From: Candidatus Bruticola sp.
GTDB lineage: Bacteria > Vulcanimicrobiota > Xenobia > Xenobiales > Xenobiaceae
Length of the DNA stretch: 64,000 nucleotides
Assembly (NCBI GenBank): GCA_051874695.1
Contig: JBJEGC010000007.1
Location: 231,465-295,464 of the forward strand
Reading direction: 5' to 3'
In this document: one piece after another, positions 31,333 to 64,000 of the stretch
How the letters are laid out: every line of letters begins with the position of its first letter
How positions within the stretch are numbered: the stretch's first letter is position 1
Translations under genes and position numbers: made by a program
Notes under the pieces: generated by a model
What the model was told of the DNA's origin: nothing
What the model saw: only the letters and a program-made list of their open reading frames with translations
Database searches by the model: none

Positions 31333-31349
31333 AAAGGAGAGATTTCTTT

Positions 31350-36865: not shown

Positions 36866-38440
36866 GTGAAACCTAGGACTCTTGGTGCAGGACCCTGCAA
36901 CAATAAATATATTAAGTCCATGCTGGTGCCTTATGCCGAGCGAACTTTGGCTAAGTCGAATCGTGCAGAGGTTGAGGCCCATTTGAATGAATGCCCGTCA
37001 TGTCGCGATAAAGTTAGGCGCCTGCGCGAGTTGATGCGTCCTTTGAGTGAACTGGCTAAAAGTGGTTTCAAGCCGGTTTACGATGCGCATCCCGATCATG
37101 AGCAGCTGTTCAAGTATGCTTACCGAGATTCTCGTTTGGATAGTAGTGAGAGAAAATATATCGATTTGCATGTTTTCATGTGCGAGGATTGCCGCCGGGA
37201 AATTTCGTTGATTGAGCAGGTAAACGCTGATTTTGATAGTTCGGCTCCGGGAGACAGTTTTCGTTGGATTATGCCTCCTGTATTGCGGGATTTATTCGCC
37301 CCTCCCAATCGGACTTCTGCTATTGTCGAGAATGCCTTGGAAAGTCGCATCCCCGATAATGAACGGCTAAAAGCCATAATGCAAAAGATCAATTTGCGTT
37401 TAGTTGGTATTTTAGCTGCTATTGTGCTGTTAATTTTTATTTGCTTGTCTTTTATAACTTGCGGTGATAGCGAAAGTGAGGTTAGTGCAGAGGCAATCCC
37501 TTCGCCGAACAAAGTGTCTACTGTAGCCTCACCTGAAGTTAAGACTGAAAATTGGACCGCTTTGCCTTTGGATAATTTTAGTCCCGTAGAGGCTTGCGAG
37601 CTTTTGAACGCTCAAAATATTAAGTATCGCAGTGTACGTGGGCGTCTCGAAGTTTTGGCGGCCGATGTTGATAAGGCACAGGCGGTTTTGCGGCAGCCTG
37701 TTGAGCCTGAGCCTAGCGAGGCTTTGGCTTCGGCAGATTACGTACCTGAGGTGGCAGAGACGGCCGACAATGGTAATGACAGTCAGGCATACGAAGCGAG
37801 TTCCGACCAGTCTTCCGAAGCTTACACAGGAACAAACGATTCGGATAATACTTCTACCGATGATTACGCCGGAGGAGAAACTGTTGAGCCGCAGTCTGCC
37901 ACTACTGGGGTTTCCGATTCCGCCGTGGAAAAGTCTCCCGAGCCGTCTGCCCCTAAGCGTAAGGCTGTTCCCGTTAAGAAGTTTTCGCAGCCTCGAGTTG
38001 CAGCACCACAGCAACGTACAGCTGTTCGCCCTGTCTACAGTGCTCAGCCTAGAGTGAAAGCTAAGGTCGCTTCCAGACCGGTACGCACTTACGATGCGGC
38101 TTCTTATCAGCCTGCGCCTGCACCGGCTGCTGCAATTGCGAAAGCATCCCCGAAAGCTAATCCGGGAACGGACCCCACTCCTATTTCTGCTTCTTACCGT
38201 TATGGAAATAACAGCTCCGATTCTTCCCCCCGTTCTTTGGCTGCACCCACGCCTCAAACTATCCATCCTGGCGTTGATGTCACCGTTTCTTCGTTGCCGC
38301 GCCGTAGTGCTCAAACGGAAGATCATAATGTAGAAACAGCGGCCTCGGTTGGTTCTTCTCAGGGCGGCGATGTGATAATTAGCGGTAATACTTACGATGA
38401 GACCGACAGTGTAACTAGCCGTGAAGAAATAGAAGAATAG
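36866..38440 (+). CDS. Membrane anti-sigma factor (zf-HC2 type) with a long Pro/Ser/Ala-rich extracytoplasmic tail
   Basis: 524-aa ORF with a GTG start. Has the motif C..(33 aa)..HLNECPSCRDKV and a second Cys pair CEDCRRE. TM helix LVGILAAIVLLIFICLSFITC. The C-terminal ~300 aa are low complexity. Confidence 0.6.
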   Translation: MKPRTLGAGPCNNKYIKSMLVPYAERTLAKSNRAEVEAHLNECPSCRDKVRRLRELMRPLSELAKSGFKPVYDAHPDHEQLFKYAYRDSRLDSSERKYIDLHVFMCEDCRREISLIEQVNADFDSSAPGDSFRWIMPPVLRDLFAPPNRTSAIVENALESRIPDNERLKAIMQKINLRLVGILAAIVLLIFICLSFITCGDSESEVSAEAIPSPNKVSTVASPEVKTENWTALPLDNFSPVEACELLNAQNIKYRSVRGRLEVLAADVDKAQAVLRQPVEPEPSEALASADYVPEVAETADNGNDSQAYEASSDQSSEAYTGTNDSDNTSTDDYAGGETVEPQSATTGVSDSAVEKSPEPSAPKRKAVPVKKFSQPRVAAPQQRTAVRPVYSAQPRVKAKVASRPVRTYDAASYQPAPAPAAAIAKASPKANPGTDPTPISASYRYGNNSSDSSPRSLAAPTPQTIHPGVDVTVSSLPRRSAQTEDHNVETAASVGSSQGGDVIISGNTYDETDSVTSREEIEE

Positions 38441-46725: not shown

Positions 46726-49122
46726 TTAGTAGTTGGCGAACATTTTGACCATCACTTTGCGATGGGCAGAAGTAGCCAAAAGTTTGTTAATGTAGGAAGG
46801 ATCGAAGGTCATTTCCACACTTTTGGCTTTATATGAAATGTTGCCCTTGTCGTCCGTCTTGGTGGCTTCACCGTCAGCTTGCGGATCTTTTCCGTAAGCG
46901 ACCATGGAGCCGGTCAGATTTAGGCGGCTGTCTTTGCCTATGTCGACATTGATATTGCCGCAAGCGTAGATAACACCAGCAATTTCCTGATCGGAGTAGT
47001 TAATACTCTGATAGCGGCTGAGCAGTCCGGCCAACTGCTGAGTTTTGTACGTTTCATAGTTTTCGGTCTGCTCGGCAGGAGGAACGAACTTGTCGCTCAT
47101 GTTGACATTGGTAATGGAAGCCATTTCTTGATTGCTGCTGCTACCTTCCTCAATTTTAGTTTGAGCTGCAGCCTTACCGGCATTGTACAATTTTTTAATA
47201 GCCTGGTAGAATTCGCAGGTAGACGTATTATGATTTTCCGCCGGTATACATACCGTATAGATGCCTATTCTCCAGTCAAATCTGTATTCATATGTGTCAC
47301 AAGAACACATTACTACTTTTGGATCGTTTGCTATGTAGTTACTTAACGTATCTTGGCCCAACATACCTTCAGAGTAAACTTGAGCCATTAGAGCTCTGCC
47401 TTTTTCGGTATTTATAAAACCTGTTATACCGGAGGTACTTTTCTCTGAGCTGCAGTAGGCACGTCCGCCGTTTATGCAACTGCTGCATCCGTGTATAATA
47501 GGTACACCTGAATTTTTGAGATCGGCAATATCAAGATCGTCCGAACTTACAGCTTCAACAAGTACCGGCTTTTCGTGGGCCACACCGGTGTCTGGATCGA
47601 TAGTAACGTTATCATACGGCTTGTTTGTGTCTTTATTGGGAGTGGGAGACACTTCTTCCATATGGGCGGTGGTATTGTAAATCGTCTCTAAGTTTACGTC
47701 GCCTTTAGCGTAAATGGAGACGCCGACGCCAGGATCCGATTCCAGAATGCTGGGACCTTGTATGCTGATATTGCCTTCGGCGGTAATAGCCCCGTTGCCG
47801 ATAGTGGCTCCGGAAATGGTAATATTGCCGGTGCCGGTCAGAATAGTTGTGTTGTTGTCACCCTGATTCTTGCTGGAAAATCCCACAATAGGACGGGTGC
47901 CGTATTCGTTTATATCGGAACGAATTAACAGATCGCCTTCAACGTACATGTTTCGGTCGAACATGATGGCTAAATTGTCGTTGTCGACGGTCATGTTGGT
48001 GGTAGTATTGCCAATTATCTCGTAGCCACTGTCAGGAAGAGTCTTTCCGTAAGGGTATATCTCTCCGGGATAATGGTGTAGTTCGTTTTTACCGGAGGAG
48101 TTTCTTACCCATACGTAAGTGCCGGCTGACAGTTTCGTGTCTTTTTCAGTGGCTCGGGGAATATCTTCCCAGGATAGAGCCGTAAAGTTCTTACCCGAGC
48201 TGCTCTGTTCACTCTTTACAGTTTGGGGTTTTTTACTGTTTACTTTGAACGAATCTCCGTAATAGACGGTGGCTCCATTTTCGATTTTGAAGTTGTCGTC
48301 ATTTTTGCCAACTTTTAAATTTATTTTGCCCAAAGAGCGCATGTTGGGCGCTGCAGAACCGTCTGAGGAAATTAAAGAAAATGATTCTACTTTGGCTGTA
48401 ATGTCGCCAGCAGCACTGACTACTGAATCGGAATTTAAGAAGTCGGGATCGAGGGACACATAAAGTTCCAGCACCTGTTGGGTGTAGCCCGAGTCTTCGT
48501 TGATAGGGTTATCTAAAGTAGCGTCGCGTACGGCTTCGCCGCTGAAACCTTCTACAATAAGGTTGCAGGTGGCTTTAGGAATTGTAACCGCCTGTACGTT
48601 TTCGTTAGGAGTAAAGACCGTCTTACCGTTGCTGGTGACATGTTTGCCCATGACTACGCCGTTTTTGTCGGCGGGGTAGGCAAAGCGGGGAACGGTATTG
48701 AAAAGGTTGTTGGTTGAAATGTAGGGAGACTCGATTTTGTTGGCGCTATTTTTCATGCCATCTAAACCGTCGTCTCCGTCTTCGCAGTTGAACTTAATGC
48801 GAAATACGGACTTCTTGCCACTGACACTGGTTACAATGCCCCAGACATTGCCTTCCTTTTCTTTCACCTCAAAATTGTTGACTTTTAACTCGTAAGGTGA
48901 AGAAGGGTTACCTTTCCAAAGAATATTGCTCTGCAGACGAGTAATGGCGTACTGGGCACCGGAATGCGCAGCCATAAGAGCGTTTTCTTTGTCGTAGAAA
49001 TTGTTGGTCATCCTTAAACTGCCGAGGTTCGAATAAACAACCGAGCTCAGGAGCATCATAACTAAGACAACTGCCAGCATTGTAGTTATCAGTACAATAC
49101 CTTTTTTCCGTTCCTTCAGCAT
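46726..49122 (-). CDS. Large PilX-N-domain surface protein, paralog 1 of 6 (putative pilus-associated adhesin; Cys-rich cassette)
   Basis: 798-aa ORF with GGAGG 5 nt upstream. The N-terminus MLKERKKGIVLITTMLAVVLVMMLLSSVVYSN...ALMAAHSGAQYAI matches the PilX_N pattern as I recall it (basic-Gly-hydrophobic helix, then A..AA.SG). There is no prepilin G/FTLxE site. Shares the SILESDPGVGVSIYAKGDVNL and YSDQEIAGVIYA.GNINVDIG blocks with the other five copies. Confidence 0.75.
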   Translation of the reverse strand: MLKERKKGIVLITTMLAVVLVMMLLSSVVYSNLGSLRMTNNFYDKENALMAAHSGAQYAITRLQSNILWKGNPSSPYELKVNNFEVKEKEGNVWGIVTSVSGKKSVFRIKFNCEDGDDGLDGMKNSANKIESPYISTNNLFNTVPRFAYPADKNGVVMGKHVTSNGKTVFTPNENVQAVTIPKATCNLIVEGFSGEAVRDATLDNPINEDSGYTQQVLELYVSLDPDFLNSDSVVSAAGDITAKVESFSLISSDGSAAPNMRSLGKINLKVGKNDDNFKIENGATVYYGDSFKVNSKKPQTVKSEQSSSGKNFTALSWEDIPRATEKDTKLSAGTYVWVRNSSGKNELHHYPGEIYPYGKTLPDSGYEIIGNTTTNMTVDNDNLAIMFDRNMYVEGDLLIRSDINEYGTRPIVGFSSKNQGDNNTTILTGTGNITISGATIGNGAITAEGNISIQGPSILESDPGVGVSIYAKGDVNLETIYNTTAHMEEVSPTPNKDTNKPYDNVTIDPDTGVAHEKPVLVEAVSSDDLDIADLKNSGVPIIHGCSSCINGGRAYCSSEKSTSGITGFINTEKGRALMAQVYSEGMLGQDTLSNYIANDPKVVMCSCDTYEYRFDWRIGIYTVCIPAENHNTSTCEFYQAIKKLYNAGKAAAQTKIEEGSSSNQEMASITNVNMSDKFVPPAEQTENYETYKTQQLAGLLSRYQSINYSDQEIAGVIYACGNINVDIGKDSRLNLTGSMVAYGKDPQADGEATKTDDKGNISYKAKSVEMTFDPSYINKLLATSAHRKVMVKMFANY

Positions 49123-49393: not shown

Positions 49394-51774
49394 TCAGAAG
49401 TTGTTGTACATTGAACACATAAGCTTACGCCTGGCATTGGAAGCCATAAAAGCGTTCATATAATCGGCATCTAAAGTTAATCCTATAGTGTTGGCTTTAA
49501 TCTTTATATTGCCGCGATCGCTGTTCCCTTCAGGGCCTCCCTTACTCGGATCTTGACCGTAGGCCACCATGGCCCCGTTTACATTCAGAGTGCTATTTTC
49601 GCCTATATCGACGTTTATATTGCGCCAAGCGTAGATCATGCCGGATATATCCTGATCCGAATAGCGCAGCTGGCCGTAACGCTTGAGGAGGCTGTTCAGC
49701 TGCTGCTGTTTGTAATCGCGGAAGTTTTCACTGACCACCTTATCGTCGACAAATTTTTTGGCTTTTTTGGCTTCCAAGTTATTGTCGATAGTAATTTGGT
49801 TAGCGGGATTTTCATCACCGTATCCTGCTTGGTAGCAGGTTATCCAGTTGCTTGAATTACAGTAATGAGTGACAGCTAAGTTAACTTCGTTATCTGCTAT
49901 GGCAGCTTCAATAGCGCTGTTTATTTTGGCTTTCTTGCCCTCAGTATCGCCTAAAATGTCTTCCGAATCGGGATCAGGAATATCTAATAAAGTGGTTCCT
50001 TCTGGGGGATCGATGCGCGCAGCATAGTTCTGGTATAAGTAGTGCTCCAAGCAGGCCTCGACTTCGCTGTCGGCTATGTCGTCACAGTTTGACCCTGAGT
50101 GCAACTTATTCCTTAAATAGGAAACTGCTCCGTTAAAAGTGTCGTTGTCGGAATCGTAAGTGAAATAAGAATTGGCTGCATTGGCCGTGAAGTCTATGTT
50201 TTTATTTTGTTCCTGTACGGCCTGAGTGGCACTGTCAATGGGAAGAAAATTGACATCTTCTTTAGCATAGACGGAAACGCCCAGTCCGGGATCCGATTCT
50301 AAAATGCTGGGACCTTGCAAAGAGACGCTGCGCTCTGAAGTAATGGATCCGCTGCCTAAAGTAGCCCCTTGAATGGAAACGTTGCCGTTGGCACTGAGAA
50401 TGGGATCGTTGTCGGTGGGGGAGTTTTTAATGAAGGCCACTACCGGACGGGTAATTTCGCTGCAGCTGTCATCGTATCTAATTTCGATGGGGCCGTTTAC
50501 CTTTATGTTGTTGCTGATAATGATGGTCGCATTAGAGGTATCAATGGTGAAACCGTCGCTGCTGCTGACCGGATGGGCAACATTGTTTTGCTTTTTGAAT
50601 CTCGAGCGTTTTCCTCTTTTCTTTTTTACTTCGGCGTTAGGGTCGCTGTCATAACGAGAGAGGGTGTAGCCGCTGTTTTCGCCGCTGTTCTTTTTCCAAA
50701 CGTAAATACCGCCTTCACGAGTTTCGTAATTTTTGCTGGTATCCGCTTTAGTTACGTCGTCCCATTTAATTCGAGCAATGTCGTCTTTGTATTCATCTGA
50801 AGATTTTATAATGCTGAAATTGGAGCCAGTAACTTGTCCAAATTTGGCTTCTTTGTCATTTAGTTTTACTTTGCCGCCGGAAACGGCCTCGCCGTTGTCA
50901 AAAACTATGTTGCTATAGTTAAGATCCATGTCGCGCAGACTGTGGATGCGGGGAGCAGAAGTACTTTGAGCGCTTTTTATGTTGATATTTTCGGCGCTGG
51001 CTTTAAGATAACCGCCTGCTCCGAGTACGGAGTTGGTGTAAGAATAGTTTGGATCGAAAGTAAAATAAACTTCCATGACATTGCGGCAGACACCACTGCT
51101 GAAACCTGCCGAGCAGTCTAAAGCGTTCTGTATACCGATCATGTTTTTCAGGGAAAGATCGCGCACTCCGTTGCCGGAAAAGCCTTCTCCACAATAAGGC
51201 GGCAGGTTGACTTGGGAAGTTCAAAGCCGACGGTGCCGTCAGTTACCTTATGGCTAGTTTTACCGTATTCATCTTGATAAGTTTTGGTTTTAAGTATGCC
51301 GTCGGAGTCGGCCTCGTATACGTTGCGCACGGCGCTGCTGTATAGATTGTTTACTGATACGTAGGGAGATTTTATCAGGTAATTTTTATCGGAAGTATTG
51401 TTCATATTATCGAAGCCATTTTCGCCGTCTTCATAATTGAATTTAATGCGGAAAAATGACCGACGTCCGTTTTGAGTAGTGAGCATGCCCCAAACATTGC
51501 CGTCTTTTTCGGTAACTTCCAATCCCACATTGGAATTATACAATTTGCTGTTAGGATCGCATCCTTGCCAAGTGATATTATCCTGCAGTTTGGTAAGAGC
51601 GTAATCGACTCCGGACTGTGCTGCCATGAGAGCTTCTTCTCTGGCGTAGAAATTAGAAGTGAGACACATACCGCCGAAGTTGGAATAAACGACTGAGCTG
51701 AGCAACATAAGTATTAAAACTATGGTCAGCATAGTTGTTATCAGTACGATTCCCTGCTTGCGCTTGGTGAGCAT
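49394..51774 (-). pseudogene. PilX-N-domain paralog 2 of 6, interrupted by a frameshift (track ORFs 51148-51774 and 49394-51166)
   Basis: The two overlapping ORFs together recapitulate the full family architecture (208 aa + 590 aa). Removing 2 nt from GTGGAGAAGGC at about 51183-51190 restores the family-consensus CRLIVEGFSGNGVRDLSLKNM. Confidence 0.75.
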
Positions 51775-52084: not shown

Positions 52085-54586
52085 TTAGAAGCTGGAGAAC
52101 ATAATTTGTTTCAGTTTTCTCCTGGCGTTTGTCGATATAAAAGCTCCCATGTAGTCGGGATCGAGAGTCATACCTACAGCTTTAGCATCTATTTTAATTT
52201 GGCCGCCTTCGCCGTTTCCGGGAGTGCTGTTGTTCGGATTACCTCCGTAAGCAACCATGGCGCCCGTCAAGTTGAGATTGCTGTTGGCACCAATATTTAT
52301 GTTAATATTGCGCCAGGCGTAAATGACTCCGGAAATATCCTGGTCGGAATACTTCACTTCTCCGTAGCGGATCATCAGCTCGTTAAGCTGGCTTTGCTTA
52401 TTTTCGCGGAAGTTTTGACTGACCAGGCTCTGATCGACATAGGTCATCACATTGCTCATGTTGCTGGGACTGAAATCGACGGCAGAATTACTGCTGGAAA
52501 TTGAAGGTCTATTAGTCCAATTTCCTCGGCCATTGTTGTTGCTGCTCCAGTTGTTCCTGTCTTTTAGATAATTTATTAGGTCTTGGGCTTTTTCCTTAAA
52601 CTCTTGGCGCTTCTGATTTATATCCCTCATTTTAGACTCAGATATAGCCCCAAAGTCGTTTATCTGCGTTAGACCGGACAACATTGTTCCACCTTTTGTG
52701 GTATCCAAATCGTCGAAATCGAATGCGGACTCAAACGCCTTGTTAAAAACATCGGAAAACTTTTCTTTTTCCCAGCCTTTGGGTCCTTTGCCTGAGGAGA
52801 AGTTCATAGTGGCACCCTGATCGTACCAAAATTCGTAAAATTCATTGAAGTAAGTGTCAATTAATCTATCGTCATAAAAAGGTGTATAATTACTAAAACC
52901 ATTCTCGCGGAAAGCCGAGGCGTAGCTTGACATGAGTGTCTTATAAGCATTTTTGGCGTCATTGAATTTGTTTTGGGCAGCTCCGGCGTCTTCCAGTTTG
53001 ACATCGTAATTTTTGTTGTTGCCGGGTTGGGCACTCATAGTGGGGTCGCTTTCAGCCAGTTGGGACGTCTCAAGCTCGGCTTTCTTTACGGTTTCGGTTA
53101 CATCTTCGATGGGCAGTAGGTTGACGTCGCCCTTGGCGTATACCGAAACGCCGACTCCGGGATCCGACTCTAAAATACTCGGCCCCTGTAGGGAAATGTT
53201 GCCGGCCGAAATTATGGAGCCGCCTCCTAAAGTGGCGCCTTCAATGAAAATGTTGTTATCAGAAGTTATAAGCGGGTAGTTGCCAGAGTCGTCTTCCAGG
53301 AAAGCCACGATGGGGCGAGAAGCTCCGCTTTCTTTGTCGTAGCGGACAATAAAAGACGAGGTTTCACCGTTGGAAGCAACAGACAGATTTCCAGAAATTT
53401 TCATGGTTTGGGAATCAAAGTCAATCTCTACGCCGGGTAGTTCCTTAGCTGTTACTTTAGTTTTGGCCGTATCTGCTGGAATAGTGGTACCCGGGGGGAA
53501 GTTTCCGTCGTAGCGGAACAAGATATTCGCTTTACCGCTTTGGTCACTGGGATCTTTCTCCCAGCAGTAAGTGCCGGCCGCAACCTTGTTGAAGGTTTTT
53601 CCCTTGCATTTATCTTGTATCGATTCCCAGGTAATTTGAGCGAAGTTGCTGCTGTCTCTGCTGGTAGAAACAGTGTAATTCGATTTAGCGGGATTGGATA
53701 CTTTAATAGTGCTGCTTTTAGCTGAGACAATCTCTCCGTCGGACATATCGAGCAGACCGGTATCAATGGTAGCACTGTTCAGAGTGCGCATTTTAGGAGA
53801 AGTACTGCCTTTGGCGTTGCTGGCTCTGATTAGGTCGGCAGTTATAGTCAGATCACCGGCAGCACTGGCTACTGAGTCGGTGAATTGTTCTTCTGAGTCC
53901 AGAGTTAAGTAAGCTTCAGAGCGAATGGACGTCTGTCCGGAAAACTCGGAGTAGCGTAAGCTGGCTACATCTTTTAAATCTAAATCGCGTAGGGAATTGC
54001 CTGCAAAACCTTCCGCTATTAAGTAGCAGCTGCCTTTGCCTATACGGAAACCGAGTGATCCGACGGCTTCTGTATGCTTGATGCCGCAAGAATCGCTGAC
54101 TTCTTGAAGCGTGGTGGTGCCGTCAGCAGAAGCTGTATAAACTTTGGTAGGAGTACTGTTGAATAAGTTGTTTACCGAAACATAGGGAGAAGCGATTAGC
54201 TCGGAAGATCCGCTGTTATTGAGACCGTCCAGACCATTGGCGCCGTCTTCATAATTGAATTTTAGGCGGAAGAAGGACCGGTTGCCGTTGGCTGTAGTTA
54301 TACAGCCGAGCACGTTGCCGTTTTTTTCAATAACTTCTAAGCCTTTGCTTGTTTCTGAAACAGTTTTGTAATCGGCAGCTCGCCAGGTAATATCGTCTTG
54401 TAGCCTGGTAATGGCGTACTGTATGCCTGATTGAGCCGCCATAAGAGCCTCTTCTCGTCCATAGAAGTTAGAGGCCAGGCGCATACCGCCCAAGTTAGAA
54501 TATACAACTGAACTGAGCAGCATAATTATCAATACAACTGTTAGCATTGTAGTTATTAAAACAATGCCGCGCTTGTCTTTCAGCAT
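52085..54586 (-). CDS. Large PilX-N-domain surface protein, paralog 3 of 6
   Basis: 833 aa from ATG 54586 (MLKDKRG), 9 nt after GGAGG. The track start at 54595 is a TTG lying against the RBS. Same N-terminal anchor and scaffold blocks as the other copies, with a unique central cassette at about 52490-53080. Confidence 0.75.
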   Translation of the reverse strand: MLKDKRGIVLITTMLTVVLIIMLLSSVVYSNLGGMRLASNFYGREEALMAAQSGIQYAITRLQDDITWRAADYKTVSETSKGLEVIEKNGNVLGCITTANGNRSFFRLKFNYEDGANGLDGLNNSGSSELIASPYVSVNNLFNSTPTKVYTASADGTTTLQEVSDSCGIKHTEAVGSLGFRIGKGSCYLIAEGFAGNSLRDLDLKDVASLRYSEFSGQTSIRSEAYLTLDSEEQFTDSVASAAGDLTITADLIRASNAKGSTSPKMRTLNSATIDTGLLDMSDGEIVSAKSSTIKVSNPAKSNYTVSTSRDSSNFAQITWESIQDKCKGKTFNKVAAGTYCWEKDPSDQSGKANILFRYDGNFPPGTTIPADTAKTKVTAKELPGVEIDFDSQTMKISGNLSVASNGETSSFIVRYDKESGASRPIVAFLEDDSGNYPLITSDNNIFIEGATLGGGSIISAGNISLQGPSILESDPGVGVSVYAKGDVNLLPIEDVTETVKKAELETSQLAESDPTMSAQPGNNKNYDVKLEDAGAAQNKFNDAKNAYKTLMSSYASAFRENGFSNYTPFYDDRLIDTYFNEFYEFWYDQGATMNFSSGKGPKGWEKEKFSDVFNKAFESAFDFDDLDTTKGGTMLSGLTQINDFGAISESKMRDINQKRQEFKEKAQDLINYLKDRNNWSSNNNGRGNWTNRPSISSSNSAVDFSPSNMSNVMTYVDQSLVSQNFRENKQSQLNELMIRYGEVKYSDQDISGVIYAWRNININIGANSNLNLTGAMVAYGGNPNNSTPGNGEGGQIKIDAKAVGMTLDPDYMGAFISTNARRKLKQIMFSSF

Positions 54587-54727
54587 GTATACCAACCTCC
54601 TTTGCCTAAATTAAATGTCAATTGAGAAAATATGCGGTAACTTTTCTCAGAACTGTCTCATTTTTTATCATGTCTGATGCTTTTCTTTGAGATAAGCGCC
54701 ACTTTCTGCGTGCTATTGTACAAACAA

Positions 54728-54770
54728 AGCCCGCTTCCTTTAGCAAATCTTTACTAAAAGAGTGCGGGCT
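54728..54770 (-). terminator. Terminator-like hairpin downstream of paralog 4 (conserved intergenic module)
   Basis: AGCCCGC (54728-54734) pairs with GCGGGCT (54764-54770). The minus strand continues TTGTTTG. Homologous hairpins occur at 57441-57482 and 60141-60180. Confidence 0.5.
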
Positions 54771-54826
54771 CTGCGTATTTTTCGTTTTTTTTGACTACTG
54801 CCAAGAGGCGTAGCTCAAAAGAGCGG

Positions 54827-57304
54827 TTAGAAGCTGGAGAACATAATCTGCTTAAGTTTTCTCCTGGCATTTGTTGATATAAAGGCTCCCATGTAATCGG
54901 GGTCTAGAGTCATGCCCACAGCTTTGGCATCTATCTTAATTTGGCCGCCTTCGCCGTTGCCGGGAGTACTGCTGTTAGGATTGCCTCCGTAGGCGACCAT
55001 AGAACCCGTTAAATTGAGAGTGCTGTTGGAGCCAATATTAACGTTAATGTTGCGCCAAGCGTAAATAACTCCGGAAATATCTTGGTCAGAGTATTTCACT
55101 TCTCCATAGCGGGCCATCAATTCGTTAAGTTGGTTCCCTTTGTTTTCGCGGAAGTTCTGACTGGCTAGATTATGGTCGACATAATTTTGCACATTGTTCA
55201 TGTCGCTGGGAGTGAATTCAGCGCTGGGAGTAGTTTCAGTAGGAGAAGAAGGAGTAGCATTGCCATTATCTACAACTTCCCAGTGATCGAATGCGAGTAG
55301 ATATCGCATAGCTTCCCTGGCTTCTTCGTAAAACTCTTCGCGGGCTTCTTTAAGATCCTCTATTTGATCTTTACTGCAATTATTGTAGCGTCCGAAATTA
55401 CTCACATCGAGATAAGGGGAGTCTTCGGAGTTGTTTCTTACGTTTACTTGTATCATTTGTAAATCGAAGGCCATAGGACCGCTATATTGCTGAGGAGTCC
55501 ATGCGGGAAGCATTTGCTTGCGCTCAAAGTAATTAGTAGCAGCTTGGGAGTGCCAATAGGAATAGAAACTAGCAAAACTGGCAAGATTTCTCTCTTCATC
55601 GCTATAGATGTTACTTATCTTTTTATAGGCCTTCATGAGGTCTTTATAGGCATCTAGTGCCTCTTCGTACTTTTTCTGGTATTTTTTTTCATTTTCAAGT
55701 ACAGCAACTTTACCTGTGTTTGCTTGGCCTTCTTCTTTAGTTGGCTTTGAGTTTATGGTGGAATCAACTTCTGACTGTTGAAATTTCTCCGGCTCAGCCT
55801 TTTTTACTGTTTCGGTTGCGTCTTCAATGGGCAACAGGTTGACGTCGCCTTTAGCGTATACCGAAACGCCAACTCCAGGATCAGATTCTAAAATGCTCGG
55901 CCCCTGCAGGGATATATCGCCGGCTGAAATTATGGAGCCGCCTCCCAAGGTGGCGCCTTCAATGAAAATGTTGTTGTCGGAAGTTATAATTGGGTAGTCG
56001 CCGGAGCTATTTTGCAAAAAGGCCACTATAGGGCGAGAAGCTCCACCTTCCTTGTCGTAGCGGATAATAAAAGATGAGGTCTCCCCATTGGAAGCAATGG
56101 AACAATTTCCGGAAATTTTCATGGTCTGGGAAGTAAAATCGATTTCGATGCCAGGCAATCCGTTGGCCGTTACTTTAGTTTTGGCCGTATCTGTTGGAAT
56201 AGGGGTGCCCGGAGGGAAGTTGCCTTCATAACGGACTAATATGTTAGTTTTGCCACTTTTGTCATCGGGATCTTTTTCCCAGCAGTAAGTGCCAGCTGTA
56301 ACCTTATTGAAGCTTTTGCCCTTGCATTTGTCTTGTACCGATTCCCAGGTAATTTGAGCAAAGTTGCTGCTGTCTTTGCTGGTAGAAACGGTATAGTTCG
56401 ACTGTTGGGGATTGGAAACTTTAATGTCGCTGCTATTAGCTGAGACGATCTCTCCATCGGACATATCGAGCAGAGCCGTATTGATGGTAGCACTGTCCAA
56501 AGTGCGCATTTTAGGGGAAGTGCTGCCTTTGGCATTGCTGGCTTTAATTATGTTGGCATTTATAATTAGATTGCCAGCGGCACTGGCTACAGAGTCGGTA
56601 AATTGTTCTTCTGAGTCCAGAGTTAAGTAAGCTTCAGAGCGAATGGAAGTCTGGCCGGACAATTCGGAGCTACGTAAGCCGGCTAAGTCTTCTAAAGCTA
56701 AATCGCGCAGAGAATTGCCAGCAAAACCTTCTGCTATTAAGTAGCAGCTGGCTTTACCTACGCTAAAACTGGAAACGCTGTCGGCCTCCGTGTGCTTGGT
56801 TCCGTAAGAATCGGTAACTTCTTTAAGTTTTGTAGTACCATCAGCAGAAGCCATGTAAACTTTGGCTGGAGTACTGTTGAACAAGTTGTTTACTGAAACG
56901 TAGGGAGAAGCGATTAGTTCGGAGGAGCTGCTGTCATTAAGACCGTCCAAACCACCGGCTCCATCTTCATAGTTGAACTTCAGGCGGAAGAAGGACTTGT
57001 TGCCGTTGGTGGTAGTTATACAGCCTAGCACGTTGCCGTTTTTTTCAATAACTTGCAAACCTTTGTTTGTTTCTGAAATAGTTTTACTGTCGGCAGCCCG
57101 CCAGGTAATATCATCTTGTAGTCTGGTAATGGCGTAATGTAGGCCCGATTGAGCCGCCATAAGGGCCTCTTCTCTTCCGTAAAAGTTAGAGGCCAGGCGC
57201 ATGCCGCCTAAGTTAGAGTATACAACCGAACTGAGCAGCATAGTTACCAATACAACTGTTAGCATTGTAGTTATTAAAACAATACCACGCTTGTTTTTCA
57301 GCAT
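54827..57304 (-). CDS. Large PilX-N-domain surface protein, paralog 4 of 6
   Basis: 825 aa from ATG 57304 (MLKNKRG), 9 nt after GGAGG. The track start at 57340 adds 12 non-homologous residues. The flanks are closely similar to paralog 3, with a unique cassette at about 55235-55798. Confidence 0.75.
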   Translation of the reverse strand: MLKNKRGIVLITTMLTVVLVTMLLSSVVYSNLGGMRLASNFYGREEALMAAQSGLHYAITRLQDDITWRAADSKTISETNKGLQVIEKNGNVLGCITTTNGNKSFFRLKFNYEDGAGGLDGLNDSSSSELIASPYVSVNNLFNSTPAKVYMASADGTTKLKEVTDSYGTKHTEADSVSSFSVGKASCYLIAEGFAGNSLRDLALEDLAGLRSSELSGQTSIRSEAYLTLDSEEQFTDSVASAAGNLIINANIIKASNAKGSTSPKMRTLDSATINTALLDMSDGEIVSANSSDIKVSNPQQSNYTVSTSKDSSNFAQITWESVQDKCKGKSFNKVTAGTYCWEKDPDDKSGKTNILVRYEGNFPPGTPIPTDTAKTKVTANGLPGIEIDFTSQTMKISGNCSIASNGETSSFIIRYDKEGGASRPIVAFLQNSSGDYPIITSDNNIFIEGATLGGGSIISAGDISLQGPSILESDPGVGVSVYAKGDVNLLPIEDATETVKKAEPEKFQQSEVDSTINSKPTKEEGQANTGKVAVLENEKKYQKKYEEALDAYKDLMKAYKKISNIYSDEERNLASFASFYSYWHSQAATNYFERKQMLPAWTPQQYSGPMAFDLQMIQVNVRNNSEDSPYLDVSNFGRYNNCSKDQIEDLKEAREEFYEEAREAMRYLLAFDHWEVVDNGNATPSSPTETTPSAEFTPSDMNNVQNYVDHNLASQNFRENKGNQLNELMARYGEVKYSDQDISGVIYAWRNINVNIGSNSTLNLTGSMVAYGGNPNSSTPGNGEGGQIKIDAKAVGMTLDPDYMGAFISTNARRKLKQIMFSSF

Positions 57305-57440
57305 GTATACTAACCTCCTTTGCAAAAAATTTAATATCAATTGAGAGAACTTTTGGCAGATTTTTTGTATTATTTGCCTCTGTTTATCTCTCAGCCGTTA
57401 TCTAACACAGAGTTTCTTTCTCTAGTTATTTCGCAAACAA

Positions 57441-57553: not shown

Positions 57554-59986
57554 TTAGAAGCTGGAGAACATGGTCACCTTCAGTTTGCGTCTAGCATTGG
57601 CTGACAGGAAAGCTCCCATGTAATCGGGATCGAGAGTCATACCTATACTGCCTGCATTGATAGTAATGGTTCCTTTGTTATCTTTTCCGGGAGTTTTTGT
57701 TTTGGGATTTGCTCCGTAGGCAACCATAGCTCCGGTAAGATTGAGGGTGCTGTTCTGGCCTATATCGGCATTGATGTTGCCCCAAGCGTAAATAACGCCA
57801 GAAATATCCTGATCAGAATATTTAAGATTGCCGTAACGGGTCAGGAGGTCAGCCAATTGAGCTTCTTTATTGTCGCGGAAGTTGTCGGTGGCCAGATCTT
57901 TATCGATGCAGTCCTGCACATTGTTGATGTCGCTGGGAGAAAGTGACGTATCTGCTTCGGTGGAACCAGTAGGTTGGGTTATAAGCTCCCAGTTATCAAT
58001 GTTCCATAAATATAAATCCAGCCTTCCGGATTTAGAATACAGTAAAGTGGAAAGCTTGTCAGCTTCTGTTTTGTTCATGGTGTTGCAGCCGTTATAAGCC
58101 GGATTTTCTGTCCAGTCTGAATCCCATGGTTCAACTTCACCTATATCATTGTAGAAAGCACTGACCATGGTCTTTCTGTAATCGCAAAATTTATCAAATA
58201 TCTCTTTTGCAGCTTCGATATGTGACTGCTCTTGGAATAAACCTGTGCTAACAGAGGGAGGGTTGCCTTCTGGACCAAAAGGGCCCTGACCGGGTCTGGG
58301 AGGCCTTTCTTGATATTGTAAGGAGGCTATGATATCATTAAAAATTTCACTCCTCAGGTCTTCGTAATCGGTGGAACTTTTGAAGACGTAAACTTGTTTT
58401 GTGCCACTTTCTCCAGTTGTTCCTGATCCGGAAGTTGTGCCGTTGTTGTCGGCTGCTGGCGGATTAGTGGGTTTTATTGTGTCTTTAACTGTAGTGGTCA
58501 GATCTTCGATAGGCAGTAGATTGACATCTTTTTTAGAGTAGATTGAGACACCTACGCCGGGATCCGATTCCAAAATGCTCGGTCCTTGCAGAGAAATGTT
58601 GCCCTCAGAAGTAATAGAGCCTCCTCCCAAAGTAGCGGCCTGTAGGAATATATCACCTGAAGAACTGATAATAGGAGAAGTTTTTGTGTTCGAATTCTCC
58701 AATAGGGCCACAATCGGTCTGGAAGCGCCGCTGTCTTTGTCGTAGCGCACTATGAAAGATGAGTCTTTGCCGTCAGCTACCACCAGAAGATTCTTCGATA
58801 TTTTCATAGTTTGGGTGTCGTTATCTATGGTCATGCCGGGCAGGCTGGTTATAGTAACTGACTTAGCGTCGGCAGGGATAGGCTCGCCGGGAGGATAGTT
58901 GCCCTGGTAACGCTTTAGAACGTTCTTTTTTGTTTCGGGATTGACACTCCATACATAAGTGCCTGCCTCCAGCTTTTCGTATTCCTGGCCGGGAGAATTG
59001 GCTTTAGTTATGTCATCCCACAAAATTTGCGCGAAGTTGTCAGAATCGCTGCTGCTTTGAGCCTTGTAAGTGGCATCTTTGTCGATAGCTTGGCCGTTTA
59101 TGGTGTAGTTGCAGTCTTTACCGTAGTAGAATTGTCCGTTGGCAAAATCAATTTTTTCGCTTTGTACGGTCAGATTCTTTAAGGTGCGGATTTTGGGAGC
59201 AGATCCGCCTTTAGCGTTATCTACGCGCAGAATAGAAGAAGTTGTTTTTAAATCGTTGGCGGCGCAGGCTACCGAATCGGTAAACTGTTCGTCGGCTGCC
59301 AAGCCCAGGTAGCTTTCTACCGTTATGCAAGCAGCATTGCAGCGATCTTTGGGCATATTTAGCATATTTTCTAAACTCAGATCGCGCACTCCGTCGCCGG
59401 CAAAACCTTCTACTACCAGATAGCAGCTCGATTTTTCTAAAACGAAGCTGCTGGAGTTTTCCGCCTCTTGACGGTTTTTGCCGTATTCGTCTTTGTAGCT
59501 TTTCAGCGTGAGGCTGCCTTCTTTGGAAGCGGTGTAAACTTTTGTGGAAGTACTGCTGAAAAGGTTGTTGACGGAAACGTAAGGAGAAGGAATTTTGTCT
59601 GAGCTAGAGCTGTCGTTCAAACCATCGAAGCCGTTATCGCCGTCTTCGTAATTGAACTTAATGCGGAAGAAGGAGCGGCGTCCGTTTTTGCTGTCGAGCA
59701 TGCCGACTACGTTGCCGTTCTTTTCCATAACGCTCAGCCCTTTAGAGCTATCGGAAATAGTTTCGCTTTCGTCGCAGCCCTTCCAGGTAATGTTGTTCTG
59801 CAGTTTGGTAATGGCGTACTGGACGCCCGATTGGGCGGCCATAAGAGCCTGCTCGCGTCCGTAGAAGTTAGAAGCCAGACGCATGCTGCCTAGGTTAGAG
59901 TATACAACTGAACTTAGCAGCATAATTACCAATACTACTGTTAGCATTGTGGTTATTAAAACAATGCCGCGCTTGTTTTTCAGCAT
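57554..59986 (-). CDS. Large PilX-N-domain surface protein, paralog 5 of 6
   Basis: 810 aa from ATG 59986 (MLKNKRG), 9 nt after GGAGG. Near-identical flanks to paralog 6, with a unique cassette at about 58010-58385. Confidence 0.75.
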   Translation of the reverse strand: MLKNKRGIVLITTMLTVVLVIMLLSSVVYSNLGSMRLASNFYGREQALMAAQSGVQYAITKLQNNITWKGCDESETISDSSKGLSVMEKNGNVVGMLDSKNGRRSFFRIKFNYEDGDNGFDGLNDSSSSDKIPSPYVSVNNLFSSTSTKVYTASKEGSLTLKSYKDEYGKNRQEAENSSSFVLEKSSCYLVVEGFAGDGVRDLSLENMLNMPKDRCNAACITVESYLGLAADEQFTDSVACAANDLKTTSSILRVDNAKGGSAPKIRTLKNLTVQSEKIDFANGQFYYGKDCNYTINGQAIDKDATYKAQSSSDSDNFAQILWDDITKANSPGQEYEKLEAGTYVWSVNPETKKNVLKRYQGNYPPGEPIPADAKSVTITSLPGMTIDNDTQTMKISKNLLVVADGKDSSFIVRYDKDSGASRPIVALLENSNTKTSPIISSSGDIFLQAATLGGGSITSEGNISLQGPSILESDPGVGVSIYSKKDVNLLPIEDLTTTVKDTIKPTNPPAADNNGTTSGSGTTGESGTKQVYVFKSSTDYEDLRSEIFNDIIASLQYQERPPRPGQGPFGPEGNPPSVSTGLFQEQSHIEAAKEIFDKFCDYRKTMVSAFYNDIGEVEPWDSDWTENPAYNGCNTMNKTEADKLSTLLYSKSGRLDLYLWNIDNWELITQPTGSTEADTSLSPSDINNVQDCIDKDLATDNFRDNKEAQLADLLTRYGNLKYSDQDISGVIYAWGNINADIGQNSTLNLTGAMVAYGANPKTKTPGKDNKGTITINAGSIGMTLDPDYMGAFLSANARRKLKVTMFSSF

Positions 59987-60254: not shown

Positions 60255-62654
60255 TTAGAAGCTGGAGAACATGGTCAGCTTCAGTCTGCGTCGAGAGTTG
60301 GCCGACAAGAAGGCTCCCATGTAATCGGGATCGAGGGTCATGCCTATGCTACCTGCATTGATAGTAATGGTTCCTTTGTTATCTTTTCCGGGAGTTTTTG
60401 TCTTGGGATCGGCTCCGTAGGCGACCATGGCTCCAGTGAGGTTGAGGGTGCTGCTTTGGCCTATATCGGCGTTGATATTGCCCCAAGCGTAAATAACGCC
60501 AGAAATGTCTTGATCGGAATATTTGAGTTTGCCGTAGCGGGTCATAAGATCGGCTAATTGGGCTTCTTTGTTGTCGCGGAAATTGTCGGTGGCCAGATCT
60601 TTGTCGATGCAGTTCTGTACATTGTTGATGTCGCTGATAGAAAGCTCCGTATCTGCTTCGGTTGAACCTGTGGACGTAGATTTGGTTGCCGATTCCCAAT
60701 TGTTTATGTTACGGAGGTAGTTGCGTATATCGTTTACCGGATGGTGAGAATCTTCATCACAAAGCTCTATCATCAAAGCATGCCACTCGGTCATGTTCAG
60801 GCCGTCACGCTCTTCAGAGCTGATTGAATCTGAAAAAGATTGATTGAGCTCGTTAGGATTAGTATCTCCGCCATTTTTTACCGTGGTTTCATATTTTTCC
60901 AATTGCGTGCAGTATTTTTCATATATAGATTTAGAAATATTGTAGCTATTGTCATCATTGAAGTTATCGAGACCGAACTTATTTCTTATATGATTGATTA
61001 CTAGTTGAAAAGTGTCCAGCTTCAATTGATCGTATGCTTCGTCTTGTTTAAGAATGTAAACTTCTTCTGTGCCGCTTCCTCCCGTTGTTACCGACCCGGA
61101 AGTGGTGCCGTTGTTGTCGGCCGTTGACGAATTAGCAGGGCTTATCTTGTCTTTGACTGTAGTGGTCAGATCTTCGATAGGCAGCAGATTGACGTCTTTT
61201 TTAGAGTAGATTGAGGCACCCACACCGGGATCCGACTCTAAAATGCTTGGCCCTTGTAGAGAAATGTTGCCCTCGGAAGTAATGGAGCCACCTCCCAAAG
61301 TGGCGGCCTGTAAGAATACGTCACCTGAAGAACTGATAATAGGAGAAGTTTTGGTGTCCGAATTTTCTAATAGGGCTACGATCGGTCTGGAAGCACCGCT
61401 GTCTTTGTCGTAGCGGACTATGAAAGACGAGTTGTCGCCGTCGGCTACCACCAGAAGATTCTTCGATATTTTCATGGTTTGGGTGTCGTTGTCTATGGTC
61501 ATGCCGGGCAGGCTGGTTATGGTAATCGACTTAGCGTCGGCAGGAATAGACTCGCCAGGAGGATAGCTGCCCTGGTAACGCTTTAGAACGTTCTTTTTAG
61601 TTTCGGGATCGACGCTCCATACGTAAGTGCCTGCTTCCAGTTTTTCGTATACCTGGCCGGGAGAATTGGCTTTAGTTATGTCATCCCACAAAATTTGTGC
61701 GAAGTTGTCAGAATCGTTGCTACTTTGAGCCTTGTAAGTAGCATTTTTGTCGATAGCTTGGCCGTTTATGGTGTAGCTGCAGTCTTTGCCGTAGTAAAAC
61801 TGTCCGTTGGCAAAATCAATTTTATCGCTTTGCACGGTCAGATTCTTCAAGGTGCGTATTTTAGGAGCAGATCCGCCCTTAGCGTTATCTACGCGCAGAA
61901 TAGAAGAGGTTGTTTTTAAATCGTTGGCGGCGCAGGCTACCGAATCGGTAAACTGTTCGTCGGCTGCCAAGCCCAGGTAGCCTTCTACCGTTACGCAAGT
62001 AGCATTGCAGCGATCTTTGGGCATGTTCAGCATATCTGATAAATTTAAATCGCGCACTCCGTCGCCGGCAAAGCCTTCCACCACCAAATAACAACTCGAT
62101 TTGTCTAAAACGAAGCTGCTGGAGTTTTCCGCCTCTTGGCGGTCTTTGCCGTATTCGTCTTTGTAGCTTTTCAGTGTGAGGCTGCCCTCTTTGGAAGCAG
62201 TGTAAACTTTAGTGGGAGTACTGCTGAAAAGATTGTTGACAGAAACGTAAGGAGAAGGAATTTTGTCTGAGCTGGAGTTGTTGTTCAGACCATCGAAGCC
62301 GTTTTCGCCGTCCTCGTAGTTGAACTTAATGCGGAAGAATGAACGGCGTCCGTTTTTGCTGTCGATCATACCGACCACGTTGCCGTTCTTTTCCATAACA
62401 CTCAGCCCCGTGGAGCTGTCGGAAATAGTTTCACTTTCGTCGCAGCCTTTCCAGGTAATGTTATTCTGCAGCTTTGTAATGGCATACTGAACGCCCGATT
62501 GGGCGGCCATAAGAGCCTGCTCGCGTCCGTAAAAGTTGGAAGCCAGCCTCATACTGCCCATGTTTGAGTAGACTACCGAACTAAGCAGCATAATTACTAA
62601 CACTACCGTTAGCATGGTAGTGATTAGCACTATGCCCCGTTTGTTTTTTAACAT
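60255..62654 (-). CDS. Large PilX-N-domain surface protein, paralog 6 of 6 (first in transcription order)
   Basis: 799-aa ORF, with AAAGGAGG 5 nt upstream of the ATG. Unique cassette at about 60715-61055. Confidence 0.75.
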   Translation of the reverse strand: MLKNKRGIVLITTMLTVVLVIMLLSSVVYSNMGSMRLASNFYGREQALMAAQSGVQYAITKLQNNITWKGCDESETISDSSTGLSVMEKNGNVVGMIDSKNGRRSFFRIKFNYEDGENGFDGLNNNSSSDKIPSPYVSVNNLFSSTPTKVYTASKEGSLTLKSYKDEYGKDRQEAENSSSFVLDKSSCYLVVEGFAGDGVRDLNLSDMLNMPKDRCNATCVTVEGYLGLAADEQFTDSVACAANDLKTTSSILRVDNAKGGSAPKIRTLKNLTVQSDKIDFANGQFYYGKDCSYTINGQAIDKNATYKAQSSNDSDNFAQILWDDITKANSPGQVYEKLEAGTYVWSVDPETKKNVLKRYQGSYPPGESIPADAKSITITSLPGMTIDNDTQTMKISKNLLVVADGDNSSFIVRYDKDSGASRPIVALLENSDTKTSPIISSSGDVFLQAATLGGGSITSEGNISLQGPSILESDPGVGASIYSKKDVNLLPIEDLTTTVKDKISPANSSTADNNGTTSGSVTTGGSGTEEVYILKQDEAYDQLKLDTFQLVINHIRNKFGLDNFNDDNSYNISKSIYEKYCTQLEKYETTVKNGGDTNPNELNQSFSDSISSEERDGLNMTEWHALMIELCDEDSHHPVNDIRNYLRNINNWESATKSTSTGSTEADTELSISDINNVQNCIDKDLATDNFRDNKEAQLADLMTRYGKLKYSDQDISGVIYAWGNINADIGQSSTLNLTGAMVAYGADPKTKTPGKDNKGTITINAGSIGMTLDPDYMGAFLSANSRRRLKLTMFSSF

Positions 62655-62986: not shown

Positions 62987-64000
62987 ATGATGAATGGTAG
63001 GACTTTTTTTGTCAGCTTAGCGATTTTCTCGATCCCGCTGGCTGGATCGGGCCTCTCTTGGGCTGTTGGCGCAGATTCCGCCTGCCAAGAAGGCACCGGT
63101 GCTAAACAAAGGCATGAGGCCTCTGAAGTCCTAGGGTTTAATGGTTTAGAAAATACTTCTGTCGTCACCTATACAGAAAAGAGTGAGGAATCGATGAACA
63201 TAAACGTAGAACGTTCTTCCGACTTGTTCCGCGCCAATTCAGTGGTGCAGAATAATGGCGCTGCCGAGTCTAAGCAGACGGCTTCCAAGGCTTCTGCTCC
63301 GGCCGTTCCCGTAGATAGTTTCTCTTTAAATAGTTCCGAGAGCAAAGAGGCCGCCACTGGTCTTCCTAAGCTCAGCGCTGCTCAGGTTAAAGCTGAGTGT
63401 TCAGCCGTGCAGCCTGAAAGCACCGATAAAAAACAGATTCTCTTCCAGTTTGACAGCCGCGGCTGCCCTCAGGCCGAGCTCAGCAATATCGGTCTCAAGG
63501 GCTCTTTCAACAATGAGACCGGCCTTTACGATCAGCATTGGAACGGCGATAAGATCGTTCCCATGCACGATGACGGCCGCAACGGAGATGCCGTGGCCGG
63601 AGACGGCGTTTATACCGCTGCCGTCGATTTGAAAACCGGACAAAACCAGCAATTCAGTTGGGGCGTGGTGGGCGACATCACCGGCAAAGACGGTAAAGTT
63701 CAGAACGCTCAGTGGTTGGTTATGAGCGAAACCAACCCCAATTTCAACTTATCAGATTCCTCAGTACAAACTTATGCTCCCATTCAGACCCATCTTTTCG
63801 GCGTACACAAAGAGGGAGAGGACGGTGTCCGCTTCCAGACTTGGTCTCCCGAAGTAGGTAAAGGCGACTTAGGTAGCTATAAGCTTTATGTTGAGATAAG
63901 TAACCCTCAAACCGGTGAAATCGAAGAGCGTCTGCCCATGGAGAAAAATGAGCAGAACGGTGTCTGGACTCTTACCCAGAACGACGGCTGGAGCAAGCTT
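62987..64000 (+). CDS. 5' part of a CBM48/GH13-type alpha-glucan enzyme (branching enzyme or pullulanase-like), truncated by the window end; not in the supplied ORF track
   Basis: My own translation gives an open frame from ATG-ATG at 62987 to 64000 with no stop. Residues from 63194 read MNINVERSS...KQILFQFDSRGCPQAELSNIGLKGSFNNETGLYDQHWNGDKIVPMHDDG..GVYTAAVDLKTGQNQQFSWGVV (AMPK/CBM48-like). They continue THLFGVHKEGEDGVRFQTWSPEVG...MEKNEQNGVWTL (the GH13 N-terminal CBM48 pattern). The start is ambiguous. 62987 gives a signal-peptide-like MMNGRTFFVSLAIFSIPLAGSGLSWAVGA but has no SD. 63194 has GAGGA 5 nt upstream. Confidence 0.5.
   Translation, partial: MMNGRTFFVSLAIFSIPLAGSGLSWAVGADSACQEGTGAKQRHEASEVLGFNGLENTSVVTYTEKSEESMNINVERSSDLFRANSVVQNNGAAESKQTASKASAPAVPVDSFSLNSSESKEAATGLPKLSAAQVKAECSAVQPESTDKKQILFQFDSRGCPQAELSNIGLKGSFNNETGLYDQHWNGDKIVPMHDDGRNGDAVAGDGVYTAAVDLKTGQNQQFSWGVVGDITGKDGKVQNAQWLVMSETNPNFNLSDSSVQTYAPIQTHLFGVHKEGEDGVRFQTWSPEVGKGDLGSYKLYVEISNPQTGEIEERLPMEKNEQNGVWTLTQNDGWSKL

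Follow-up and report, generated by a model that had tools for sequence, protein, structure and literature searches.

How have two neighbouring genes come to be closely alike over most of their length and almost unalignable in between? The question is raised by a 64,000-nucleotide stretch of DNA from Candidatus Bruticola sp. (contig JBJEGC010000007.1, positions 231,465 to 295,464; hereafter the window), in which six co-oriented minus-strand genes of 792-833 codons, here called P1 to P6, form a tandem array that spans 46.7-62.7 kb of the window. Our analysis centres on P3 and P4, each of which contains an internal segment that we refer to as the cassette, lying between an N-terminal and a C-terminal flank (the N flank and the C flank). 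Evolution of this pair as a mosaic, by recombination, is well supported, and we consider it probable that the array as a whole consists of tandem genes for proteins resembling tip-type minor pilins or pseudopilins, in which a conserved scaffold carries a helical cassette with a history of its own. The features concerned, the cassettes being delimited by a maximum chi-square scan, are these:

52085-54586, minus strand: P3, 833 amino acids (aa), within an open reading frame (ORF) at 52085-54595; conserved Met (MLK...) at 54586; A-type, X-class cassette
52475-53068, minus strand: P3 cassette, 594 nt, residues 507-704
54827-57304, minus strand: P4, 825 aa, within an ORF at 54827-57340; conserved Met (MLK...) at 57304; A-type, X-class cassette
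55217-55786, minus strand: P4 cassette, 570 nt, residues 507-696

In a protein alignment, residues 1 to about 507 of P3 and P4 are collinear, gap-free and 85% identical, and the last 114-130 or so residues are 88-91% identical, with no difference in the final 54 columns (which include GNGEGGQIKIDAKAV...MFSSF); the cassettes between them, of 190-198 residues, are only about 27-28% identical. An earlier note, made from the sequence alone, had put the flanks at roughly 85-90% identity and had described an unalignable cassette of about 570-590 nt, and both descriptions hold: a two-breakpoint maximum chi-square scan places the breakpoints at residues 507 and 704 of P3 and 507 and 696 of P4, within about 20 nt of the limits drawn in that note. 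Nucleotide divergence is 0.546 inside the cassette and 0.159 outside it (chi-square 342), and all 26 gapped codon columns of the alignment fall inside. The note was also right that the cassettes are homologous but far more diverged than their flanks, since tblastn detects the relationship at the protein level (E = 1e-11, 25.7% identity over 187 residues), while blastn with a word size of 7 finds no nucleotide match between the two cassettes at E <= 0.01. The three short islands of similarity that it quoted are present, at residues 544, 583 and 660 of P3 and 549, 580 and 655 of P4. P5 and P6 form the same kind of mosaic (N flank 94%, core about 25% and C flank 93% identical, with sharp edges at residues 534 and 663/674), and in an alignment of 72 full-length homologues the cassette is the sole strongly variable block; the pattern in P3 and P4 is therefore neither due to chance nor peculiar to this pair.

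Members of the family come from genomes of the gut and rumen that bear the label Candidatus Bruticola or UBP9 (class Xenobia, phylum Vulcanimicrobiota/Eremiobacterota), where an array of 3-6 paralogs is the usual arrangement, and the earlier note had suggested a comparison with such relatives. That comparison reveals clean cassette swaps between strains on near-identical flanks. Two samples of one related species, L029 and L030, have the first gene of the array at the same place. Their sequences agree at 99.79% of 7505 nt as far as about codon 523, show no match over the following 450 nt or so, and then resume at 98.1% identity. Within this gene the N flank has a synonymous divergence (dS) of 0, the cassettes are 19% identical and the C flank has a dS of 0.53, from which it follows that the exchanged tract extends into the C flank. 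Six more allele pairs, from three orthologue groups, are at least 98% identical before residue 510-530 or thereabouts, 19-33% identical inside the cassette and 85-99% identical after it. In the relatives, then, homologous recombination between strains that otherwise have identical flanks exchanges the cassette whole and takes part of the C flank with it; the breakpoints lie in or beyond the linkers that border the core of the cassette. In every comparison, silent sites have diverged further in the C flank than in the N flank: 1.13 against 0.60 for P3/P4, 0.58 against 0.41 for P5/P6, and, for first array genes, 0.53 against 0.00 for L029/L030 and 0.24 against 0.04 for L002/L029. Exchanged tracts thus seem to reach 3' of the cassette, and the higher silent divergence of the C flank fits diversity linked to the cassette.

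The exchanged cassettes belong to two superclasses, X (represented by P3 and P4) and Y (represented by P5 and P6), which in related species are alleles of a single gene. In BLAST clustering, the P3, P4 and L001 X-type cassettes (L001 being the closest related genome locus, from a sister species) join one allele class of the related-species gene, and P6 joins the other. The L030 cassette is 44% identical to that of L003, from another species, and its dS in that comparison (0.84) is close to the flank dS (0.92). Classes X and Y are old and persist across species, and we infer that the X-class cassettes of P3 and P4 are deeply diverged from each other and predate the last common ancestor of the flanks. 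When the 190-residue P4 cassette was used by itself as a query for homologues, nothing came back, not even P4; a word-index search is unreliable with so short and divergent a query, and the outcome says nothing about donors.

The flanks and the cassettes of the array also have different genealogies when the sister-species locus L001 is used as the reference. N-flank dS is 0.60 between P3 and P4 and 1.2-1.3 from either to the L001 orthologue, such that P3 and P4 are sisters in this part of the gene; the corresponding values are 0.41 between P5 and P6 and 1.4-1.5 to their orthologue. In the cassette, P3 shares 36 sites with the L001 orthologue as compared with 22 with P4, and the distances among the P5/P6 cassettes are star-like. 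The contrast in site patterns between flank and cassette is significant for both trios (p = 0.008 for P3/P4 and p = 3e-5 for P5/P6). In both paralog pairs, therefore, the flanks are younger than the cassettes. The earlier note had proposed separate histories for cassette and scaffold, which the discordant genealogies uphold, and had offered two routes to them: gene conversion that homogenises the scaffold while diversifying selection protects the cassette, or recombination of old cassette alleles into a recently duplicated scaffold. In our reading, either an older duplication was followed by gene conversion that made the flanks partly uniform, or a younger duplicate received one of the cassettes by import. 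Either the cassettes predate the coalescence of the flanks or they were imported, and for P3 and P4 the data do not separate the two routes. Tests for conversion tracts are significant for P5/P6 (run length, p = 0.014; heterogeneity, p = 0.003). The G+C content at third codon positions (GC3) is 0.435 in the cassettes of the six paralogs, 0.434 in 24 other ORFs of the window and 0.520 in the scaffolds (Fisher p = 1e-6), and the scaffold value is compatible with GC-biased gene conversion in the flanks and may be a relic of it, but is not proof. The last 40 residues of P3 and P4 are fully conserved but differ at half of their silent sites (proportion of synonymous differences, pS, 0.5), which indicates purifying selection, not recent conversion.

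An alternative that we regard as unlikely, although less so than the others, is that flanks and cassettes are of the same age and that positive selection alone, accompanied by insertions and deletions, drove the cassettes apart after duplication, with neither conversion nor import. Faster divergence after duplication is a common pattern, and between close alleles of one class the ratio of nonsynonymous to synonymous divergence (dN/dS) is about 0.6 in the cassette, as compared with 0.05-0.16 in the flanks. Moreover, the third island (RQEF...NW; P3 residues 660-680, approximately 52547-52609, against P4 residues 655-675) has 13 replacements in its 21 residues and no silent difference at any of seven conserved residues (0/7), and may be a younger or positively selected helix within the cassette. 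Selection on the protein does not raise silent divergence, however, and silent divergence is near saturation at the conserved residues of the cassette. The earlier note had proposed a comparison of dS in the cassette with that in the flanks; taken over the whole P3/P4 cassette this measure is uninformative because the Nei-Gojobori pS (0.75) equals the value obtained when codons are paired at random (0.77 in a shuffled-pairing null). At identical residues, for which the saturation value is 0.56, silent differences are nevertheless more frequent in the cassette, at 24/45 codons (0.53) against 171/526 (0.33) in the flanks of P3 and P4 (Fisher p = 0.008) and at 17/32 against 143/601 (0.24) in P5 and P6 (p = 0.0006); islands 1 and 2 of the P3/P4 cassette have 9/12. 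This is the opposite of the outcome that, according to the note, would have spoken against its reading. Positive selection alone would also require an average dN/dS of about 2-3 over 130-200 codons, and it does not account for flanks that are clear sisters around cassettes whose genealogy is star-like or discordant, in a family that demonstrably swaps its cassettes.

Far less probable is the proposal of neutral drift since a single duplication, again without recombination, in a cassette that is no more than a loosely constrained linker. Unconstrained sequence of the same age as the flanks is expected to differ at the rate seen at four-fold sites of the flanks, and the cassettes lie far above this neutral ceiling (0.546 of aligned sites against 0.331 for P3/P4, p = 7e-25; 0.556 against 0.276 for P5/P6, p = 1e-28), so relaxed constraint alone fails. 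It is true that the dN of the cassette (0.77-0.83) is near the dS of the flanks (0.60-1.13), that a dN/dS of about 1 would yield roughly the 28% identity observed, and that parts of the cassette region are modelled with a confidence (predicted local distance difference test, pLDDT) below 50. Neutral drift of a linker nonetheless agrees poorly with the sharp boundaries of the cassette, with relatives that have an N-flank dS of 0 and a cassette identity of 19%, and with a core that is predicted to be a folded helical domain of the same architecture in P3 and P4. Least credible of all is an assembly artefact, an apparent tandem array pieced together from alleles of strains that live side by side. 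The contig is indeed metagenome-assembled and is represented once in the protein collection, and related species do carry the X and Y cassettes as alleles of a single gene. But the flanks of the copies differ by 6-15% and their intergenic regions are distinct, a tandem of one Y-type and one X-type A gene is also present in the independent genome of the sister species (L001), and arrays of 3-6 paralogs are found in many independent assemblies.

What, then, is the cassette? The AlphaFold2 models of P3 and P4 (mean pLDDT 80 and 81, respectively) begin with a 63-residue helix, which is followed by a four-stranded sheet and a large beta-rich body. The modelled cassette is alike in the two proteins and comprises a short strand, three long helices with one or two short ones, and a second short strand; the long helices of P3 have a pLDDT of 84-90, and the flanking linkers fall below 50. 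The predicted cores are located as follows:

52562-52987, minus strand: helical core of P3, aa 534-675, from the model, with low-confidence linkers at aa 508-526 and 685-701
55295-55690, minus strand: helical core of P4, aa 539-670, from the model, with low-confidence linkers at aa 510-531 and 681-695

The models thus suggest that the cassette is a folded helical domain of about 130-200 residues, held on flexible linkers in one loop of the C-terminal part of the scaffold. A profile search of 1.84 billion representative sequences extends the scaffold family to 847 clusters (defined at 50% identity), 312 of them with E <= 1e-30, and none of the 10 clusters that were looked up bears a functional name. 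Many of the distant homologues are 600-650 residues long and keep both halves of the scaffold with a short Gly/Pro loop, or nothing, at the site of the cassette. The cassette is hence an inserted domain, specific to its lineage, in a loop that permits insertion. Three cassette-less homologues (P0112, P0119 and P0133) have a different insertion of about 130 residues elsewhere in the scaffold (alignment columns ~480-640), indicating that the scaffold tolerates domain insertions at more than one loop.

The N terminus of the scaffold provides a link to type IV filaments. P3 to P6 match the PilX_N profile of Pfam (PF14341) over its full length and above its gathering cut-off of 25.5 bits (27.5, 29.9, 32.2 and 32.8 bits for P3, P4, P5 and P6, respectively), and P1 and P2 fall below it (23.7 and 17.0). 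In the pair under study the matching segments, which are of the PilX_N/GspK type, are:

54422-54571, minus strand: P3, aa 6-55 (G-IVLITTML...), Pfam PF14341, part of the modelled 63-residue helix
57140-57289, minus strand: P4, aa 6-55, Pfam PF14341

Gly7 and the hydrophobic stretch that follows it are nearly invariant in 55 sequences, and position +5 is Thr and not Glu; subunits of the GspK/PilX type typically lack Glu5. The NCBIfam model of GspK itself (NF037980) reaches only 17-27 bits against a cut-off of 130, is confined to the first 60 or so residues, and gives no full-length match. In three distant loci (L031/L032, L033 and L034) the homologue directly follows two prepilin-type genes of about 160 and 260 residues, and this third position is that of GspK in minor-pseudopilin operons. 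The trios, with the scaffold gene third, lie at 8709-12193 of L031, 115-3092 of L033 and 4726-7860 of L034. The prepilins of the distant loci have the cleavage motifs G-YSLAE, G-FSLSE, G-ASVLE, A-FSLLE and A-FTLTE (the hyphen marks the cleavage site), and they match N_methyl and, weakly, PilV, GspI, GspH and ComGE. Among these three distant members, one cluster is labelled Phycisphaerales. The only cultured member of the phylum is a diderm and makes type IV pili (PMC9758169); the literature on pili of Xenobia or Eremiobacterota and on hypervariable minor pilins otherwise provided general context only.

The preferred reading, a recombining cassette on a scaffold that belongs to a filament tip, must be set against a number of observations that weigh against one or other part of it. 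Cassette replacement is seen in relatives only, the species of the window being represented by one genome. Some of the residues that are identical between the cassettes are perhaps chance alignments, which would inflate the estimate of silent differences, and the lack of any silent difference in island 3 means that some of the cassette may be no older than the flanks but fast-evolving. The grouping of the P3 cassette with the L001 orthologue, from 36 against 22 shared sites, is marginal when taken alone (p = 0.087). The earlier note had supposed that gene conversion keeps homogenising the scaffold, and this is not what we find for P3 and P4: their flanks are not freshly homogenised (N-flank dS 0.60, C-flank dS 1.06-1.13), and neither a run test (p = 0.35) nor a heterogeneity test (p = 0.13) for conversion tracts in the N flank is significant. 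As regards the filament, Foldseek searches of PDB and BFVD with the P3 model found nothing below E = 0.2 and so do not confirm a pilin fold, and a profile search of PDB sequences gave no meaningful match. Neither the window nor the neighbourhood of the Xenobia arrays encodes pilus machinery, a prepilin peptidase or a partner minor pilin. When prepilin motifs were sought by regular expression, the window had none and the array-bearing Xenobia loci had only a single distant case in each of L018 and L026; tblastn with the partner pilins of the distant homologues had no match in the Xenobia array loci.

With these points in mind, the mosaic can be given a possible function. The scaffold, whose flanks are under strong purifying selection (dN/dS 0.06-0.13) that probably keeps it constant, would be a minor pilin or pseudopilin of the tip type in a type IV filament, with the helical insert as its exposed and diversifying face; that face could be the surface of an adhesin, an antigen or a phage receptor. 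The array may then give one cell line four alternative A-type tips, with related species keeping the same diversity as alleles. The earlier note had read the cassette as a variable surface-recognition module; the mosaic that it described is there, and a recognition role is suggested by the fold, by the type of N terminus and by the gene context of the distant homologues, which together also point to a type IV filament and to a place at its tip. A more specific picture, which we put forward tentatively and would not yet favour, is that gut Xenobia have an undescribed giant tip subunit of a type IV filament, in which a few ancient classes of helical domain (X, Y and their subtypes) are kept across species by balancing or diversifying selection and are moved between identical scaffolds by homologous recombination. 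Such a system could be serotype-like or could set receptor specificity, and the species of the window would have fixed as four paralogs what its relatives hold as alleles.

The remaining members of the array are:

57554-59986, minus strand: P5, 810 aa, A-type, with a Y-class cassette at 57965-58387
60255-62654, minus strand: P6, 799 aa, the first gene of the array, A-type, with a Y-class cassette at 60666-61055
49394-51774, minus strand: P2, B-type, its frame broken by a 2-nt insertion (GA) at about 51185-51189
46726-49122, minus strand: P1, 798 aa, the last gene of the array, with a variable region at about 47008-47640

P2 is split into two ORFs by the GA in ATTGTGGA[GA]AGGC, and deletion of these 2 nt gives back a paralog of 792 aa. 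This copy looks like a gene in decay, and the closest related genome locus (L001) has no B-type gene among its three array genes. The genes of the array are separately punctuated, each having a AAAGGAGG ribosome-binding site of its own and, as an alignment of the intergenic regions, a terminator scan and a search for inverted repeats agree in indicating, being followed by its own terminator-like element, a GC-rich hairpin with a run of T:

54726-54774, minus strand: terminator-like hairpin between P4 and P3
57438-57485, 60137-60188, 52027-52064, 49309-49326 and 46677-46715: equivalent hairpins

Promoter matches were not above the expectation from shuffled sequence, and we made no use of that scan. 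Upstream of the array is a divergently transcribed gene for a secreted protein, and downstream is a CN-hydrolase gene. A large divergent secreted gene always precedes the array; the copy in the window (62990-64000, plus strand) is partial, and its first 336 residues have no Pfam match. The gene in the same position in L029 (2393-5890) and L030 (2188-5685) encodes CBM48 and alpha-amylase domains. The other ORFs of the window that were scanned are housekeeping genes. They include genes for LpxB, an LpxD-like acyltransferase and LptF/G (1895-4342, 7717-8700 and 14460-15590), from which we conclude that the organism makes lipopolysaccharide and has an outer membrane, a point in keeping with a link to pili. 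Elsewhere the window encodes, at 30631-32051 and 36866-38440, an extracytoplasmic function (ECF) sigma factor followed by a zf-HC2 anti-sigma protein and a second zf-HC2 protein, and, at 17247-19319, a Sel1 protein with 13 repeats.

Xenobia are uncultured bacteria of the gut and rumen about which, to our knowledge, almost nothing functional has been established. In a protein that is probably part of a surface filament, discrete cassette classes shared across species show where on the cell the pressure from outside is probably strongest, be it from host antibody, phage or the choice of ligand, and they make the cassette a practical locus for strain typing. As the same diversity is held as alleles in some species and as tandem paralogs in another, the family allows balanced polymorphism to be compared directly with gene-family expansion. 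The scaffold family, which has no relative in PDB and which in some lineages occupies the GspK position of minor-pilin operons, may be a kind of pilus-tip protein, open to domain insertions, that is widespread but has gone unrecognised.

Among known systems, the minor pilins and pseudopilins GspK, PilX and ComGG offer a close counterpart to the scaffold. The array proteins resemble them in having a Gly followed by a hydrophobic helix without Glu at +5, in models with a long N-terminal helix and then a four-stranded sheet, and in the gene order of the distant homologues, which follow two prepilin-type genes as gspK follows gspI and gspJ. GspK has a helical alpha-domain inserted in a beta-rich body, and the models of P3 and P4 likewise place a helical domain in such a body. 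Unlike these subunits, the array proteins are 2.5 times larger, have a hypervariable insert and no structural match in PDB, and are encoded in stand-alone tandem arrays without partner pilins or machinery nearby. A further parallel is the Verru_Chthon cassette of PVC bacteria, a set of prepilin-type proteins A to C, in that the distant homologues also have small prepilins followed by a large protein; the prepilin-type genes upstream of the distant homologues have weak matches, below the cut-offs, to Verru_Chthon proteins B and C (E = 3e-4 to 6e-4). The Verru_Chthon family includes a large protein D. No Verru_Chthon model, that of protein D included, matches P1 or P3 to P6 at E <= 1, and the Xenobia arrays lack the small partner genes.

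As regards variation, there is no sign of a programmed switch at this locus, which has no invertible repeats, no silent cassettes and no template repeats. In the R64 shufflon, variants of the tip adhesin PilV are made by the Rci recombinase, and alternative minor pilins are thought to be located at the pilus tip. The array shares with it the existence of alternative versions of a putative tip minor pilin, which would confer alternative specificities, but here the variation is internal rather than C-terminal and the variants are separate genes. A shufflon or other invertible-segment system can be set aside: all of the genes are co-oriented, a search for inverted repeats around the cassettes or promoters found only the terminator hairpins and short chance repeats, and there is no recombinase among the 31 other ORFs of the window that were scanned. 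The pilE/pilS system of Neisseria is similar in being pilin-like, with a conserved N-terminal part and a variable region shaped by recombination or conversion among linked copies. It differs from the array, whose six copies are full-length, each with a ribosome-binding site, a start codon and a terminator-like hairpin; tblastn and blastn with each cassette found no silent partial cassette in the 64 kb, which excludes a pilE/pilS-type arrangement, and the cassettes are unrelated to one another at the nucleotide level and so are not current conversion donors for each other. Nor are the cassettes targets of a diversity-generating retroelement, since they have no second nucleotide-level copy and differ by insertions, deletions and unalignable sequence, not by adenine-specific point variants.

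The variation also has a parallel in flagellin. H-antigen variation in FliC and FljB involves conserved termini and a hypervariable central domain that is exchanged by recombination, and the Xenobia proteins likewise have conserved N- and C-terminal parts around a nearly unalignable centre, discrete allelic classes on near-identical flanks, and replacement from strain to strain. The protein family and the filament are nevertheless unrelated, the array has neither a phase-switching invertase nor invertible repeats, and the classes are here also fixed as tandem paralogs within one genome. Conserved ends around a recombining, hypervariable middle are thus already well known from flagellins and pilins; what is new is the protein family itself, the helical domain inserted in it, and the contrast that classes which are paralogs here are alleles in related species.

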